NCBI RefSeq assembly: GCF_003334255.1
Contig: NZ_QOWU01000070.1
Source of the DNA: Escherichia coli
Lineage (GTDB): Bacteria > Pseudomonadota > Gammaproteobacteria > Enterobacterales > Enterobacteriaceae
Length of the DNA stretch: 19,728 bases
Strand: one strand, 5' to 3'
Part shown: positions 545 to 11,756 of the stretch, in pieces
Position numbering within the stretch: the stretch's first letter is position 1
Layout of the letters: every line of letters begins with the position of its first letter
Notes under the pieces: model-generated
Told to the model about the DNA's origin: nothing
Seen by the model: only the letters and a program-made list of their open reading frames with translations
The model's database searches: none
Position numbers and translations under genes: made by a program

Positions 545-3256
545 CTACATTCCAGGTGATGGTGGCGTCCACTCATTATCCTGAACTGGAGTATAAGATG
601 TGTCATTCCCCCCGGATATGCTTTTCTGTTGCCTGATATATTCGTGGTAGTACTGTTCACTACGCTGACGATGTAAATCCACATCCGGGCGGCTGATTAC
701 AAAGTGTCCATTTCCGGTTATTCCAGCTGCATTATGCCAGGCCACCATTTCCGCAAATACATCATTAAACTGTTGATATGAGCCTTCCGGTTCAAAACCC
801 ATTCCAGGCTCACGATCAAACAATACAGGAGCAATCAGATTCAGCTTATCCACCAGTTCATTTCTGTCCTGATGATGGTAGAACACCACACGGTCCCCAT
901 AATCCACACAGACTAACTCGCCATTCCTCCGATCACGAAAACGCACACTGCCATCTTTCTGCAGACGGGCTTCGAGAACGCCAGTGTCTTCATAAAGTGG
1001 AGTTCCTCCCGGTTCACAGATAATCACGCAGCGGTCGGCATTCGTTGTTCGTCGCTTGTCTTTGCGACGATCACGATAATCCCAGCCACGTAACTGTGAT
1101 ACTGCAGCTCTGTCTCCCTGTACCGCCTGTTGCTCCACCCACTGCCGGTAGGACAAAGGATACCACTTACCCTCCGCAATCAGTGACAACCGCTCTTCCT
1201 TCACACTCTCCTTCAGCCTGATCAGCGCCTGCATACGCTGCACTTCCGCAATATGGTAATGCAGCTTACGCAATTGTGGATCCCGGAACTGCACGCGGAT
1301 ATACGCCTTGCGCCGACGGCAGGCAGCATGAATTTCCCGTAACCGTTCTCCGTAACGTAAGTCGGGTTTACGCCAGTGCTCCTTCCATGCAAGATAACGC
1401 GCGCGCAAATCTTCCCGCGCAGCTGCACGGGCTTCACGGCGTTCACGACGCAGTACAGGATCGCGCCGGAAGCCGGGCTCCACTTCATCGCTGGCAGCAA
1501 GTTCCGGATTGTAGCGACATTCAGGCTTCACCCGTTCAAATATATCTGCACCTGCGATCTCAAATGGCCCTGCCTGCGGCTCAGCCCTGGATAATGTCAA
1601 ATCCGGGTGGATACTGCTGGCCTTCACTGGTGTCAGCTCATGATTAAACGCATCCACAATCACAAGACCATGATGCTGTTTCTGCAACATAAGCCCTTTA
1701 CGCGCAAACATCTCATGGCACGCCTGCCAGCTGAAATTCCCGCCCGCGATCATATCTTCAATCAACGACTCACACTGAACAGTCGTGTACCCCCACAGAC
1801 TTTCCTTATCAGAAAACAGTTCGCGCTTTATTGCTCCCTGTGGACCTGTCCCCATCCGCATACGATACCATTCGTAATCACTGACAGCCCGGGTACCGGT
1901 ACTGTGCCCCCGGAATCGTTCTCCGGGGACGACCTGGGTAAAAATATCCTTCGGTACAGGCTGCCATCCGCCTTCCTGATCCTGCATGTAATCCAGCGTC
2001 ATTAACGGCCACACACTGTCTGCACGTACTGGTGTCTGTTGTTTATCAAATCCATCATGCAGTACCAGATGCCCGTGCTGGATCCCCATCCATAATCCAG
2101 CCTTTGCCAGAGTTCTGTGCACATCCAGGCAACTTTCCAGCTCACCATTTCTCGCCATTTCCGGTAAGCGTTCGGCAAAATGACGGCAGGCGTACTGTTT
2201 CAGACTCTCCGTTTCTGCCACTTTTTCCGGCCGGATATCAACGTTTATCGCTTCCGGATCATAACGACCGGGTGTCCCCACCTGACTGAAAATATCTGTC
2301 GGTACAGGCTGATATTCTCCCAGTTTCCGCCCCAGTCTTTCAGCCGTCCATGACGGGCCGAACGAACTGAGCACAACACCTTCCCGCGATCTGTCCCAGC
2401 CATCCTTCACCACCAGTTCTCCCTCCTGCATCGTGATATACAGACCATCACGGGCCAGCCGTTTATGCAAAGACAACCAGTCCTGGGCGGGTTCTTCACG
2501 CAGCCCGGCAATCGACATCTGCGCAATATATTCCCTGAAGGTCTGCTTTTTCCCGCGTCGCCAGGCATTACGGCGCTCACGTACCAGCGCTGTTTTACGC
2601 ACAATACGGTTGCCCGGTGCATGCACAAAACACCCGTTATCCGGTGCAAATCCGTGCTTAAGTTCAAGTTCACGGCATGCACGACTGAGTTTTTCCTTGC
2701 TCCACGGAAGGCAATTGATATAGCCGGTTTCAGGATGAACACGATTCACTGCAACATGTACATGCAGGTTATCGGTGTCTGTATGAACGGCAGCTACATA
2801 CTGATGTTTTGAAAGTTCAAGGGATTTCAGTGTGTGACGTACGCAGTCAAAAAGCTGCTCAGGACGCGGGCTTTCATGCGCAGGCCAGGAAAGAATGTAG
2901 TGAAAAACAGGGTCTGTATCATCTTTGGAAAAATGAGCAAGGTCTGCTGCTTTCTGCATTTCTTCAGCCGCAGATTCAAGAGACAAACAGTTATGAAAGC
3001 AGGTCACACCATAGAAATTCACCCACTGACTGCCGTCTTCCATTACATCAATCAGGGATACAAATTTTTCGTTACGCAGGCGTGTGGCATAGTCAACAAG
3101 CCGTCTGAAGCGGTTACGGTGCGGGACCTCACCTTTCATTTCCGGGTCTGGTTTGAGTTCATCATCCTGCACATCATCCCGCACAGACGTGTACGCAATC
3201 AGGTCTTCAAAGGAAGACCTTCCGTCACGTCTTTTGGGCGGAATGATAGCATTCAT
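545..3256 (-). CDS. nikB: MOBP-family conjugative relaxase (NikB-like), 903 aa
   Basis: Relaxase histidine motif HTDTDNLHVHVAVNRVHPETG (HxDxxxxHxH type). Size and N-terminus (MNAIIPPKRRDGRSSFEDL) fit my memory of IncI1 R64 NikB (~900 aa). Lies directly downstream of a nikA-like gene and oriT. Confidence 0.88.
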   Translation of the reverse strand: MNAIIPPKRRDGRSSFEDLIAYTSVRDDVQDDELKPDPEMKGEVPHRNRFRRLVDYATRLRNEKFVSLIDVMEDGSQWVNFYGVTCFHNCLSLESAAEEMQKAADLAHFSKDDTDPVFHYILSWPAHESPRPEQLFDCVRHTLKSLELSKHQYVAAVHTDTDNLHVHVAVNRVHPETGYINCLPWSKEKLSRACRELELKHGFAPDNGCFVHAPGNRIVRKTALVRERRNAWRRGKKQTFREYIAQMSIAGLREEPAQDWLSLHKRLARDGLYITMQEGELVVKDGWDRSREGVVLSSFGPSWTAERLGRKLGEYQPVPTDIFSQVGTPGRYDPEAINVDIRPEKVAETESLKQYACRHFAERLPEMARNGELESCLDVHRTLAKAGLWMGIQHGHLVLHDGFDKQQTPVRADSVWPLMTLDYMQDQEGGWQPVPKDIFTQVVPGERFRGHSTGTRAVSDYEWYRMRMGTGPQGAIKRELFSDKESLWGYTTVQCESLIEDMIAGGNFSWQACHEMFARKGLMLQKQHHGLVIVDAFNHELTPVKASSIHPDLTLSRAEPQAGPFEIAGADIFERVKPECRYNPELAASDEVEPGFRRDPVLRRERREARAAAREDLRARYLAWKEHWRKPDLRYGERLREIHAACRRRKAYIRVQFRDPQLRKLHYHIAEVQRMQALIRLKESVKEERLSLIAEGKWYPLSYRQWVEQQAVQGDRAAVSQLRGWDYRDRRKDKRRTTNADRCVIICEPGGTPLYEDTGVLEARLQKDGSVRFRDRRNGELVCVDYGDRVVFYHHQDRNELVDKLNLIAPVLFDREPGMGFEPEGSYQQFNDVFAEMVAWHNAAGITGNGHFVISRPDVDLHRQRSEQYYHEYIRQQKSISGGNDTSYTPVQDNEWTPPSPGM

Positions 3257-3267
3257 CAGCGACTGTC

Positions 3268-3600
3268 TCAGCGTCCCATTAAGTCTCTTCGCAGAGTGTT
3301 TGCAAGTTCTGTAATGGCAACGAGGACCTCTGCATACTCTTTATCTCCCGTGCGTTTTCCTTCCACAAACAGATGCTTCTGCAGGTGACCAAGACGCATC
3401 AACTCTTTCAAAAAATCTTCATCAATGCGGGCATTTATCTGTTTTCCCAGCACAGTTTTTCTTATCAGAGTTGAAACTGTCAGTCCGTTTTTTTCTGCCT
3501 TTTCTTTAACAATCTCAGCCTCTTCTGGTGAAAAACGAACAGCAATGAGGACATTCTTTTGCCGTTTCTCACTGCCATTTCGGTTTTTCTTCTCACTCAT
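3268..3600 (-). CDS. nikA: Relaxosome accessory protein NikA (ribbon-helix-helix oriT-binding), 110 aa
   Basis: 110-aa product starting MSEKKNRNGSEKRQ with SD AAGGAG 6 nt upstream of the ATG at 3598-3600; the longer 139-aa ORF in the track would overlap the oriT repeat. Small basic protein immediately upstream of the relaxase, the R64 nikA-nikB arrangement. Confidence 0.85.
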   Translation of the reverse strand: MSEKKNRNGSEKRQKNVLIAVRFSPEEAEIVKEKAEKNGLTVSTLIRKTVLGKQINARIDEDFLKELMRLGHLQKHLFVEGKRTGDKEYAEVLVAITELANTLRRDLMGR

Positions 3601-4253: not shown

Positions 4254-5102
4254 TCAGACTCGTGGCGGCAATGCACCAGGATAATGACGTGCAATAATAT
4301 CATTCAGTTTTTCAACAAGGTCAGGACACTTAAAGACAATATGTACGGTCCCTTTCTGGTAGCCACGCACCGTAAAATATTCCCCTTCAAACAACTCACC
4401 GATATTGTCGCCGTTCCCGAGATATTCACCATACTGCGCCCCGATGCTGTTCCTGAAGTCAGGAACGTTGCGTCCCTCCAGCAGATAAAACGGACGTACC
4501 AGGTCATCCAGTGCCTCCCGTCCGCTGCAGTCCAGCGTCACACGCCCGTTACTCCAGCGGTACAGCAGGTTTTCAATAATGATTTTCTTGCCCAGACGGC
4601 AGGGATTATTGGTTCTGTAATCCCATGACAATTTCCGGTAGACATCAATCAGTCCCTGTTCAAATGTCTGCATCTTGCTGGCATTCAGATGGCGAAAAGT
4701 TGCCAGTACATTGTCCAGGGTGATTTCAGGACAGGTGTCGCTCATCAGCTGGCTGTTCCACTCATCACGCTGGCATGAACTCATGAAGGTGTACATCCCC
4801 GTATCCGCCATCAGGCGGTCCCAGATTTTACGGTCGGCAAGACGGGTGATATTCTTTTTTGCTTCTTCCGGTTTATCCATGCATCGAACGGAGTCAGTCA
4901 CGCAGTCTTCAAACCCGTAGAGAAAAATGTCACCAGAAGCATCGAGCAGAATCCTGCGTGCTGTCGCCAGGCATTCCATCGCCTGCATGAACAGTGCAAT
5001 ACCTTCGTTACGCTGCGCGATAATGCGGTCGATGGCCACAGACGGAATAATATCTGTCGTGCCGGCAGTATTCAGGTCAGCAGTGGGTAAAGTCTGATTC
5101 AT
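4254..5102 (-). CDS. Hypothetical protein, first gene of the leading region (possibly DUF4942-like), 282 aa
   Basis: Long ORF; ATG at 5100-5102 with SD GAGGAG 8 nt upstream (the track start is a GTG one codon earlier). No methyltransferase, HExxH or nuclease motif seen by eye. The family assignment is from memory and weak. Confidence 0.75.
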   Translation of the reverse strand: MNQTLPTADLNTAGTTDIIPSVAIDRIIAQRNEGIALFMQAMECLATARRILLDASGDIFLYGFEDCVTDSVRCMDKPEEAKKNITRLADRKIWDRLMADTGMYTFMSSCQRDEWNSQLMSDTCPEITLDNVLATFRHLNASKMQTFEQGLIDVYRKLSWDYRTNNPCRLGKKIIIENLLYRWSNGRVTLDCSGREALDDLVRPFYLLEGRNVPDFRNSIGAQYGEYLGNGDNIGELFEGEYFTVRGYQKGTVHIVFKCPDLVEKLNDIIARHYPGALPPRV

Positions 5103-5681: not shown

Positions 5682-5933
5682 ATGACCGGCTGGGAACTGC
5701 GAATCTGGCGAAAAAGCATGCTCTGGTCACGCGAAAAAGCGGCCAGAGAATTTGGCGTGACGCAGAGAACATGGCACGCCTGGGAAAATGCGGAACAGGT
5801 GGATGTCACCGTCTGGAGGACCACCCAGGCACTTTCAGTCCGTGACCTGCTGCCTCACATGCAGGGGATGCGTAAGGCAGATATCATCAGGCGACTGGAA
5901 AATGAACTGGGGGAAACGGCAGAGGATGTGTGA
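5682..5933 (+). CDS. Small helix-turn-helix (XRE-like) DNA-binding protein, 83 aa
   Basis: ATG with AAAGGTG SD; N-terminal segment ELRIWRKSMLWSREKAAREFGVTQRTWHAWEN fits an XRE-type HTH; preceded by the twin palindromes. Confidence 0.65.
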   Translation: MTGWELRIWRKSMLWSREKAAREFGVTQRTWHAWENAEQVDVTVWRTTQALSVRDLLPHMQGMRKADIIRRLENELGETAEDV

Positions 5934-5963: not shown

Positions 5964-6122
5964 CTACTGCTCATCAGGAAACAGCTTTTTCAGTTCTTCA
6001 CCGGAAAGTCCCGTGACCTCCTGAATCCGTTCCGGCGGCCAGCCCATATTCCAAAGCCGGCAGGCTATTTCCCGCGCCACTTCAAGTGCGCCTTTTTGAA
6101 TAAGACGTTCTGCAATCGTCAT
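5964..6122 (-). CDS. Free-standing RpnS-like small protein (paralog of the Rpn C-terminal domain), 52 aa
   Basis: MTIAERLIQKGALEVAREIACRLWNMGWPPERIQEVTGLSGEELKKLF parallels the C-terminal tail of the adjacent Rpn protein; own ATG at 6120-6122 with SD CAGGAG; separated from rpn by a terminator hairpin. Confidence 0.6.
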   Translation of the reverse strand: MTIAERLIQKGALEVAREIACRLWNMGWPPERIQEVTGLSGEELKKLFPDEQ

Positions 6123-6146
6123 GCTGTTTGCTCTGCTCCTGCTGAC

Positions 6147-6172
6147 AAAAAAGCCCGGGATTTTGCCGGGCT
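6147..6172 (-). terminator. Rho-independent terminator immediately after the rpn stop codon
   Basis: Minus strand: stem AGCCCGG / CCGGGCT (6152-6172) followed by TTTTT (6147-6151). Confidence 0.6.
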
Positions 6173-6184
6173 TTGTGGTTCTCA

Positions 6185-7147
6185 TCAGTAAGTGATTTTC
6201 TTCAGTTCGTCATCGGAAAGTCCGGTAGCCTGCTTAATCTGCTCCGGCGTCATCCCCATTTTCTGAAGCTGGCACGCAATAGCCAGGGCTTTTTCAAGCG
6301 CTCCTTCCATGCGTCCTTCCATGCGTCCTTCCATGCGTCCTTCCATCCTGCCTTCCTGGCGACCTTTTTGCTCAAGACGTTCTGCGATAGTCATCAGTTT
6401 ATCCTCATGCTGCGGCAGACGCTCAGCCAGCGCCCGCATAAATTCCGGTGATACAGAGTCCCCTGCGTTAACGATGTAATGAATCAGAACACGCACCTGC
6501 TCGTCTGAAATTTCCACCATGACCTGCGGGAGTTTGTCCAGCAGCTCCATCATGTCACGATGGCGGATATGCTTCATCAGCAGCGTCAGTGCGGCCATCC
6601 GGCGATGGTTCATGATTTCATTGTCATCAACGACAGTGATATCAACCAGCGGAAACGGCTTTGTGTATATTTTAGCCGCAAGTGCCGGATTCTCAAAACA
6701 GTCCAGCCAGTTCATGCTGTACGGGTACGGGCTGCGCTCACCGTGATAGAACAGCACCGGAATCACCAGTGGCAACGTTTTGTGCTGCTCCAGATGTCTC
6801 TGCATCGCCGCCACACTGTAGCGTAACATGCGAAAAGGCATGTACAGATTTTCTGTGCTCTGGTGCTCGATGAGCGTATAAACATAGCCGTCTTCACCCC
6901 CGGTGGTTTTCACGCTCCAGAGGATATCGCTGGCGTACTGATGCAGGTCCGGCTCTACAAAGGTGGCGGGTTCCAGCTTCAGCGTGGACAGGTCGCACAA
7001 CTGCCGGTACTCCGCCGGAAGATGCAGTTCCAGAAAATCTCTGGCGACGTCGGGATTCGCCAGGAACGACCGGAACGCGGCATCATGCGGCGTGGGCGTT
7101 GTGGTGGTTTTCTTCTTACTCACTTTCCCTCCATGAGTTATTATCAC
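6185..7147 (-). CDS. Rpn-family (YhgA-like, PD-(D/E)XK) recombination-promoting nuclease with internal RpnS-like start
   Basis: N-terminus TPHDAAFRSFLANPDVARDFLELHLPAEYRQLCDLSTLKLE and the core ASDILWSV ... YVYTLIEHQS closely parallel E. coli RpnA as I recall it. C-terminal repeat linker and tail are present; an internal ATG at 6392-6394 with SD GAGGA would give a 69-aa C-terminal product. True start may be the GTG at 7121-7123 (SD GGAGGG). Confidence 0.8.
   Translation of the reverse strand: MIITHGGKVSKKKTTTTPTPHDAAFRSFLANPDVARDFLELHLPAEYRQLCDLSTLKLEPATFVEPDLHQYASDILWSVKTTGGEDGYVYTLIEHQSTENLYMPFRMLRYSVAAMQRHLEQHKTLPLVIPVLFYHGERSPYPYSMNWLDCFENPALAAKIYTKPFPLVDITVVDDNEIMNHRRMAALTLLMKHIRHRDMMELLDKLPQVMVEISDEQVRVLIHYIVNAGDSVSPEFMRALAERLPQHEDKLMTIAERLEQKGRQEGRMEGRMEGRMEGRMEGALEKALAIACQLQKMGMTPEQIKQATGLSDDELKKITY
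6302..6349 (-). repeat. In-frame 12-bp tandem repeat (3 perfect + 1 variant unit) encoding (EGRM)n in the Rpn linker
   Basis: Plus-strand unit TCCTTCCATGCG repeated head-to-tail; translates on the minus strand to RMEG repeats (QEGRMEGRMEGRMEGRMEG). Confidence 0.9.
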
Positions 7148-8110: not shown

Positions 8111-8316
8111 AATCAATATCCTTACAAAGGTTGTTGATATCCGTGCAAAGGGGTGTTCCCGCCCCCCTGGCACACCCACTAACCTCCTTTTCCTTCCCGG
8201 CATTCCCTCACGCTGTGCGTGATTTACATCGTTCTCACCTCCTTCACTGGGTTGTTTCTGTTCGCTAAAAAATGGTCAGGTTGTTAAAGAGCGGCACGGT
8301 ATGTTCAGGCATCTTC

Positions 8317-9672: not shown

Positions 9673-10098
9673 TCAGTCAAGTGCAGCGTAAATCGCGTTG
9701 CATTCGGGGTGAAATTCGATGTGGCTCCACAACTGCGCATCGCGCATCCTGTACAGGTGTGTCAACCCTGCATCCCCGCTGTCGTGGTACAGCCACAACT
9801 GGCGGTTAATCACAAGGGAAGTCAAAATGATGCCTGCGGCATCAGCACTCACGGTACGGTCAAACCAGTTTTCACCGTTGACCAGATGAAAACGGTCGCC
9901 ATCCGGCATCATGTAACCGCCACCGTCCGGCAGGCGGATGAAGTGCCAGAATCCGCCTTCATATTCCGGCATCATTTTTTTCGCCAGCGCGTATACAGAC
10001 GCTTCGGCATACAGAAAATCCAGGCCAAACAGGTAAGGCAGAAAAGACAGACGGTCGCACTCTTCAACGTTCAGAGTGACAGGTTTCGCATACTGCAT
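9673..10098 (-). CDS. ArdB/KlcA-family antirestriction-like protein, 141 aa
   Basis: Start MQYAKPVTL with SD GGAGG 6 nt upstream (the track ORF begins earlier at 10179). Motifs FLPYLFG, EGGFWHFIRLPDGGGYMMPDGD and SADAAGIILT match my recollection of the KlcA/ArdB/YfjX family. Confidence 0.7.
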   Translation of the reverse strand: MQYAKPVTLNVEECDRLSFLPYLFGLDFLYAEASVYALAKKMMPEYEGGFWHFIRLPDGGGYMMPDGDRFHLVNGENWFDRTVSADAAGIILTSLVINRQLWLYHDSGDAGLTHLYRMRDAQLWSHIEFHPECNAIYAALD

Positions 10099-11114: not shown

Positions 11115-11756
11115 TTGATAAGTAACGTCCGGAAAAACTTCAGCGTCATTCTTGAGCGTACGGTACGCGAACTCAACGGCGAGTCCTGCATATCCCTGGA
11201 AGAAGCACCACCGGCAAAACAACAGATTGTCTGTAGTCGCAGTTTTGGTGAACGAATCACAGACAAAGATGCCATGCACCAGGCTGTTGTTCAGTATGCA
11301 GAGCGGGCCGCAGAGAAACTACGTGGGGAGCGTCAGTATTGCCGGCAGGTGACGACATTTGTACGGACATCCCCCTTTGCAGTAAAAGAACCCTGTTACA
11401 GCAATGCCGCTGTGGAAAAGCTTTCATTGCCCACACAGGACAGCCGGGACATTATTGCCGCCGCATGCAGAGCCTTAAACCATGTCTGGCGTGAAGGGTA
11501 CCGCTATATGAAGGCAGGAGTCATGCTGGCTGATTTCACTCCATCGGGTATAGCGCAGCCGGGATTATTTGATGAAATCCAGCCCCGTAAAAACAGTGAA
11601 AAGTTAATGAAAACACTCGATGAACTGAACCAGTCGGGAAAAGGGAAAGTGTGGTTTGCGGGGCGAGGAACCGCCCCTGAATGGCAAATGAAACAGGAAA
11701 TGCTATCGCCTTCGTATACAACACAATGGACTGAGATCCCCATTGCTTCATTCTGA
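11115..11756 (+). pseudogene. impB: impB/umuC/mucB-family error-prone polymerase gene, 3' half only
   Basis: [13 protein letters not shown] ... [11 protein letters not shown] ... TTFVRTSPFA ... PTQDSRDIIAAA ... YMKAGVMLADF ... LFDE ... WQMKQEMLSPSYTT aligns to the C-terminal ~210 residues of MucB/UmuC as I recall them. An in-frame TGA at 11109-11111 and non-homologous sequence upstream show the N-terminal half, and any impA/impC, are missing. Confidence 0.85.

Follow-up and report, generated by a model that had tools for sequence, protein, structure and literature searches.

The 12-bp tandem repeat at positions 6302-6349 of the stretch of Escherichia coli DNA analysed here (19,728 nt in full, referred to below as the window) is very probably a hypervariable repeat of four amino acids (a dodecamer in the DNA) in an Rpn toxin-antitoxin system of the gene-within-gene type, carried by an I-complex (IncK2/Z-type) conjugative plasmid. 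The repeat, its variation among strains and its effect on specificity are already known, having been published in 2023 (Zhong et al. 2023, PNAS, PMC10400941), and the tract in the window is a member of that published phenomenon. The value of the present locus lies in its being a clean and quantified example, in which the full ladder of 0 to 5 units is found in one very common plasmid gene. The parts of the locus needed for the argument are the following.

6185-7147, minus strand: rpn gene (RpnL); longest open reading frame 320 aa, from GTG at 7147, stop codon 6187-6185
6402-6406, minus strand: Shine-Dalgarno-like GAGGA, the GAGG core of which ends 8 nt upstream of the internal ATG
6185-6394, minus strand: predicted intragenic RpnS, 69 aa, in the same frame as RpnL; ATG 6394-6392; putatively expressed
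6350-6361, minus strand: degenerate founder unit CGCCAGGAAGGC (CGC CAG GAA GGC, RQEG), directly preceding the four RMEG units
6302-6349, minus strand: hypervariable tract, RMEG x4, from the sequence, Tandem Repeats Finder and shuffles; 0-5 units in related plasmids

The tract consists of four codon-aligned 12-bp units, in frame, which on the coding (minus) strand read AGGATGGAAGGA (6349-6338) followed by three copies of CGCATGGAAGGA (6337-6302). Unit 1 has the codons AGG ATG GAA GGA and units 2-4 have CGC ATG GAA GGA, the sole difference being a synonymous Arg codon, and all four units encode R-M-E-G, to give (RMEG)x4. An exact 12-bp tandem repeat inside rpn, with three identical units and one variant in frame, had been reported in the preliminary description of this DNA; both the sequence and Tandem Repeats Finder show this to be correct, and the EGRM units named there are the same repeat in the other register. 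On the plus strand, Tandem Repeats Finder returned positions 6302-6346 as a perfect period-12 array, TCCTTCCATGCG (3.8 copies, 100% matches), whose score of 90 was the highest of any repeat in the window, and it found the 12-bp unit at no other place in the window. The longest period-k self-match in the window, at period 12 and starting at 6302, extends over 33 positions. Since the corresponding values for 30 dinucleotide-preserving shuffles were a mean of 9.5 and a maximum of 13, the tract is far beyond chance. The founder unit RQEG was present in every allele that we examined, including the allele with 0 RMEG units, and on the coding strand GCG CTT GAA AAA (ALEK) comes directly after the RMEG units.

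In the matching RefSeq record, NZ_CP060058.1, rpn is 312 aa long, corresponding to a start at the GTG at 7123. The product is an Rpn-family protein by TIGR01784 (180.1 bits vs a cutoff of 52.1), and residues 19-215 match Pfam Transposase_31 (PF04754, YhgA-like) at E 2.5e-78, which marks the N-terminal nuclease domain. The product did not reach the cutoff of the RpnA equivalog NF007361 (318 vs 583 bits), and was also under the equivalog cutoffs of the RpnA paralogs; it is thus a member of the family, and not RpnA itself. As judged by these sequence comparisons, the rpn gene of the window is a distinct paralog, widespread on I-complex plasmids. The D66 and E86-H87-Q88 columns were invariant among the Rpn homologs aligned and would, by inference, fit a PD-(D/E)XK-type motif. 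When the complete AF2 model was compared with PDB by Foldseek, the best matches were nucleases of this type (Cap4, Nt.BspD6I, XisH and NucS), but since all were weak (E > 0.04), the assignment of a nuclease fold rests on Pfam and NCBIfam. A phmmer search of PDB with the full rpn protein returned a designed 'CAP repeat' protein only, and no PADLOC 2.0 model matches the rpn locus.

An alignment (A1) of 66 full-length Rpn homologs from Enterobacterales bears on the putative internal start. In 65/66 of these the internal Met (residue 244 in the 312-aa numbering) is conserved, and the GAGGA at 6402-6406 is encoded by conserved H-E-D codons, residue 240 being E in 54/66 homologs and residue 241 being D in 57/66. 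From the internal Met to the C-terminus we counted 49+4k aa in 66/66 homologs, with k = 0-9, the value in the window being 69 aa; length variation of the domain is therefore quantised in four-residue steps. The sequences of the repeat units vary by lineage among the same homologs (IEKG, KLEG, IQQG, RMEG, IQLG and others). The base length of 49 aa is also the length of the crystallised RpnA-S chain, 7th0_A, named 'Recombination-promoting nuclease RpnA', and a search of PDB with the A1 profile found this chain at E 1.5e-5. A query consisting of just the 69-aa RpnS gave 7th0 at E 0.04, amid repeat-protein noise, so that the 66-homolog profile was needed to raise this match to E 1.5e-5.

The marks of an RpnL/RpnS pair found at this locus are an internal in-frame start codon that follows a ribosome-binding site and opens the C-terminal domain, for which the evidence is that of sequence only; homology of the C-terminal domain to the RpnA-S three-helix bundle, seen in the profile match to 7th0_A and in the AF2 helices described below; and four-residue repeats that start at residue 12 of RpnS, inside the predicted first helix, and vary in number among related plasmids. 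In a separate observation, a sigma-70-like promoter match, TTGAGA-16-TAAAAT (10/12), was noted inside rpn at 6669-6696 (minus strand), approximately 275 nt upstream of the RpnS start, where it could yield a separate RpnS transcript; the region has 2 such matches vs 1.7 expected by chance, so that the promoter candidate is a weak one.

Variation in the number of units was determined among sequenced plasmids. A 1,401-bp query covering the gene region had matches in 2,040 PLSDB plasmids, most of them conjugative, from Escherichia, Salmonella, Shigella and Klebsiella hosts. With a shorter query of 221 bp, which had the tract at its centre, 1,639 plasmid records (I-complex conjugative plasmids) were matched, and the distribution of copy numbers given here is that of a ranked 60-row sample spread over the 1,639 records, and not a census.

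Match span 173 bp, 0 RMEG units: 12 rows of the 60-row sample
Match span 185 bp, 1 RMEG unit: 13 rows
Match span 197 bp, 2 RMEG units: 13 rows
Match span 209 bp, 3 RMEG units: 9 rows
Match span 221 bp, 4 RMEG units: 6 rows
Match span 233 bp, 5 RMEG units: 1 row

The remaining 6 rows of the sample were partial matches. Within the 197-233-bp classes the deficit in identity equalled the gap columns exactly, which means that the remainder of the 221-bp query was 100% identical. Translation of one locus per class gave proteins of 296, 300, 304, 308, (312) and 316 aa, for 0, 1, 2, 3, (4) and 5 RMEG units respectively, the corresponding loci being L006, L005, L004, L003, the window and L002, and in every case, with one locus per class compared, the unit gained or lost among the alleles was CGCATGGAAGGA. 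When two of these loci, L002 with 5 units and L006 with none, were aligned over 2,173 bases, 8 substitutions were found, together with one 60-bp indel, which is the tract; the locus is otherwise without length change. Outside the tract, the rpn gene of the window is ~98% identical to the IncI1-type copies. From the near-identity of L002 and L006 despite a gap of five units, together with this ~98% identity, we conclude that copy number changes much faster than substitutions accumulate. The preliminary description had held the site to be prone to length variation, an expectation borne out by the clean 12-bp steps among related plasmids; the comparison of copy number across relatives that it had proposed shows a variable number, 0-5 units, and not an invariant one.

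The published work on Rpn systems gives these observations a ready interpretation. There, rpn genes are shown to be genes within genes: the full-length product, RpnL, is a toxic nuclease, and its antitoxin is RpnS, the C-terminal domain, whose translation begins at an internal start (PMC10400941). The crystal structure of RpnA-S is a dimer of three-helix bundles in contact via the long first helix, and it is this dimer-forming helix that the repeats extend; the four-residue 'dodecamer repeats' in the first RpnS helix vary among strains, and AlphaFold models predict that they make the helix longer (PMC10400941). An extra repeat in RpnC-S or in RpnC-L alone abolishes neutralisation, and the same addition in both restores it; the number of repeats decides which L form a given S form can neutralise (PMC10400941). 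The toxicity and neutralisation work covers RpnA, RpnB, RpnC and RpnP2 only, and protection, against T-even phages, is published for the plasmid-encoded RpnP2 only (PMC10400941). The authors left open the mechanism by which dodecamer repeats expand, and likewise the question of selection for the variation (PMC10400941); a proposal in the literature is that repeat variation is driven by a phage factor.

By analogy with these systems, the locus in the window might operate as follows. Full-length RpnL would be a nuclease with an N-terminal restriction-endonuclease-like domain, and the internal ATG at 6394, with its own ribosome-binding site, would direct translation of a 69-aa RpnS with the same sequence as the C-terminus of RpnL. 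The RMEG units would lie in the first long helix of the RpnS domain, each unit adding four residues of helix, and RpnS would bind RpnL via helix 1 and so silence the nuclease, again on the pattern of the published pairs. The long and the short protein have a common coding sequence, so that a gain or loss of units alters both together. Units can be gained or lost by slippage or unequal exchange between exact copies. At the present locus, replication slippage or unequal exchange of the exact 12-bp units would thus give rise to the population of 0-5-unit alleles, and the number of units would set the geometry of the helix-helix interface and hence, as with RpnC, which RpnS silences which RpnL. 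For the gene in the window, RpnL toxicity, specificity by repeat number and phage defence are predicted from the literature. An effect of tract length on contact between the C-terminal domain and the nuclease, as suggested in the preliminary description, comes near to the RpnC result, and since that result is published, the suggestion is not new.

The most serious competitor of this interpretation is that the variation is neutral mutational noise: slippage in 12-bp steps would be easy, a solvent-exposed helix would tolerate additional turns, and there would be no selected function. Several observations are of the kind that this explanation would lead one to expect. RpnL and RpnS share their DNA, so that changes in unit number are self-compensating and possibly neutral in cis; the units are perfect at the DNA level, synonymous sites included, which is the signature of recent slippage; the 0- to 3-unit classes are about equally common in the 60-row sample, as drift would give; and the near-identical loci L002 and L006 differ by five units while otherwise unchanged. 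Yet distant homologs hold old, degenerate four-residue units (IEKG, KLEG, IQQG) with different codons and residues, the strict 49+4k lengths point to constraint on phase at the protein level, and in RpnC one extra unit abolishes cross-neutralisation (PMC10400941). We regard neutral noise as unlikely on balance, while granting it a real minority chance.

The position of the tract in the protein bears on the second alternative, which builds on the linker of the preliminary description and in which the repeats form a flexible interdomain connection whose length tunes how the RpnS-like domain folds back on the nuclease within one polypeptide. The tract does have the composition of a linker, being rich in G, E and R and of low-complexity appearance. 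However, the repeats (RQEG/RMEG) begin at RpnS residue 12, the published range being 8-20, and a tract that starts 12 residues downstream of the internal Met is inside RpnS, and so in both the long and the short protein. The AF2 model, made with A1 (mean pLDDT 78.6), has a single continuous helix over residues 237-288 (52 residues) that holds both the internal Met and the tract (255-274), with no coil, the block pLDDT of this repeat-bearing helix being 76-90; further helices of the C-terminal domain are predicted at 293-300 and 304-311. Likewise, in the RpnA-S crystal structure the site of insertion falls within helix 1, at the dimer interface (PMC10400941). The true connector between the nuclease domain and the Met is a separate and non-repetitive segment, from after ~207 to 244 in the 312-aa numbering, the end of the Pfam nuclease domain at residue 215 of the 320-aa reading frame being equivalent to about 207 in that numbering. 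On the model, then, the tract belongs to helix 1 of the C-terminal domain and does not form a flexible interdomain linker; the placing of the repeats between the nuclease and the RpnS-like domain is not supported, and we hold the linker explanation to be very improbable.

That the repeat acts at the DNA or RNA level, as iteron-like binding sites or a phase-variation switch with its coding capacity incidental, is scarcely credible. In its favour are the exactness of the tandem repeat, its location on a plasmid and the artefactual open reading frames that cross it in other frames. Against it, the four-residue periodicity persists in homologs whose nucleotide sequences are unrelated, the unit occurs at no other site in the window, and, the period being a multiple of three and every allele in frame, the tract cannot switch the gene on and off. 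The phase-variation and iteron readings were rejected on these grounds, namely that the alleles are all in frame and that the homologs show the periodicity with different nucleotides. Assembly artefact was also considered, and rejected.

Compared with the Rpn systems of Zhong et al., RpnP2 included, nothing essential differs. The protein family, the internal Met with its ribosome-binding site and the position of the repeats are shared, as are the composition of the units (one hydrophobic residue with charged residues or Gly), the 12-bp steps among strains and a downstream RpnSs copy; in the work on RpnC the extra unit was KGIE, whereas that of the window is RMEG. With RpnA-S of E. coli K-12 (7th0), the RpnS of the window shares a homologous three-helix C-terminal domain, 49 aa being the zero-repeat base length. 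An imperfect repeat at the same place in RpnA had been mentioned in the preliminary description, and this was roughly right in that the 7th0 chain reads ERLRQEGEQSKAL at the corresponding place; K-12 RpnA-S nevertheless has essentially no expanded tract there, whereas the RpnS of the window has five units (RQEG plus four RMEG) in its 69 aa. A more distant likeness is to the 'TAEL' repeats of EcoR124I/EcoR124II HsdS (cited in PMC10400941), which are also four-residue, 12-bp, in-frame repeats of a helix, and in both cases copy number alters molecular spacing and hence specificity. The TAEL repeats of HsdS, a type I restriction specificity subunit, set the spacer length of the DNA recognition sequence, in contrast to the toxin-antitoxin protein-protein specificity proposed for the Rpn repeats, and Rpn and HsdS are not homologous. 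The allelic ladder described here could serve as a natural test set for questions of repeat expansion, contraction and selection. For annotators, it means that rpn genes of unequal length in IncI/IncK plasmids reflect true variation and are not errors of assembly.

Downstream of rpn on the same strand are two further features.

6145-6174, minus strand: intrinsic-terminator-like hairpin, AAAGCCCGG-CAAAATC-CCGGGCTTT, with a T-run, immediately after the rpn stop
5964-6122, minus strand: RpnSs-like small open reading frame, 52 aa, MTIAERLIQKGALEVAREIA... (MTIAERLIQKG...), ATG at 6122, stop at 5964

The hairpin separates the rpn stop codon from the RpnSs ATG, is GC-rich, and folds at -20 kcal/mol with z = -3.0; it was spotted by eye, the consensus terminator scan having failed to pick it up. 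The small open reading frame matches RpnA positions 240-288 weakly and is a second copy of the RpnS domain, comparable to the small RpnS homologs (RpnSs), with like repeat variation, that have been reported downstream of some rpn genes (PMC10400941). Annotators should note that what is labelled a 'hypothetical protein' downstream of rpn is a further RpnS-like copy. RefSeq gives it as a 73-aa hypothetical protein from 6185, with a TGATG overlap with rpn. As this longer reading frame crosses the hairpin, and the annotated start differs in loci L003 and L004, the 73-aa annotation is probably over-extended, and the true start is likely to be the ATG at 6122.

The RpnSs-like reading frame has a variable 12-bp tract of its own, made of F-x-x-G units placed right after 'IQKG'. 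We counted 0 such units in the window and in L003, 1 in L005, 2 in both L002 and L006, and 4 in L004; the match spans over this tract among plasmids were 176, 188, 200, 212 and 224 bp, and plasmids with 0, 1, 2, 3 or 4 units occur. In the six loci there was no obvious relation between the unit numbers of the RpnL/RpnS tract and those of the RpnSs tract. With 0 units in the RpnSs of the window and 5 in its RpnS, the published matching rule would predict, by analogy, that this RpnSs does not neutralise the RpnL of the window.

The window has the same backbone as E. coli G8 plasmid NZ_CP060058.1 (IncK2/Z, I-complex), to which it is 99.9% identical and whose annotation, when mapped onto the window, placed the neighbouring genes as follows.

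about 545-3256, minus strand: relaxase
about 3268-3600, minus strand: mobA/nikA
4254-5102: DUF4942 gene
5682-5933, plus strand: HTH regulator
about 9673-10098, minus strand: antirestriction (ArdA-type) gene

The gene order is relaxase, mobA/nikA, DUF4942 gene, HTH regulator, RpnSs, rpn and ArdA-type gene, which locates rpn ~2.6 kb from nikA/oriT, on the ardA side. We interpret the region between nikA/oriT and ardA as the leading region of plasmids of the I-complex (R64/ColIb-type). In the literature library searched, no paper was found that links Rpn with plasmid leading regions or with IncI1. One may imagine that the two hypervariable tracts together form a repeat-number 'code' for plasmid-versus-plasmid discrimination on entry, in which an incoming RpnL unmatched by the resident RpnS/RpnSs, or the reverse, would create conflict. 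We put this forward as a conjecture with little chance of being right; if true, discrimination between plasmids would differ from, or add to, the phage-factor proposal for repeat variation.

Two minor observations concern the borders of conserved sequence. Directly upstream of rpn, from 7137 onward, homology to loci L002-L006 collapses to 37-70 differences per 100 aligned columns; as rpn is ~98% identical and the upstream homology is lost, the promoter region and the upstream neighbour have been exchanged. The window also lacks two insertions of NZ_CP060058.1, IS421 and ISEc12, and at these IS junctions the aligned blocks overlap by 13 bases (8151-8163) and 5 bases (~11628-11632), as is expected for target-site duplications in NZ_CP060058.1.
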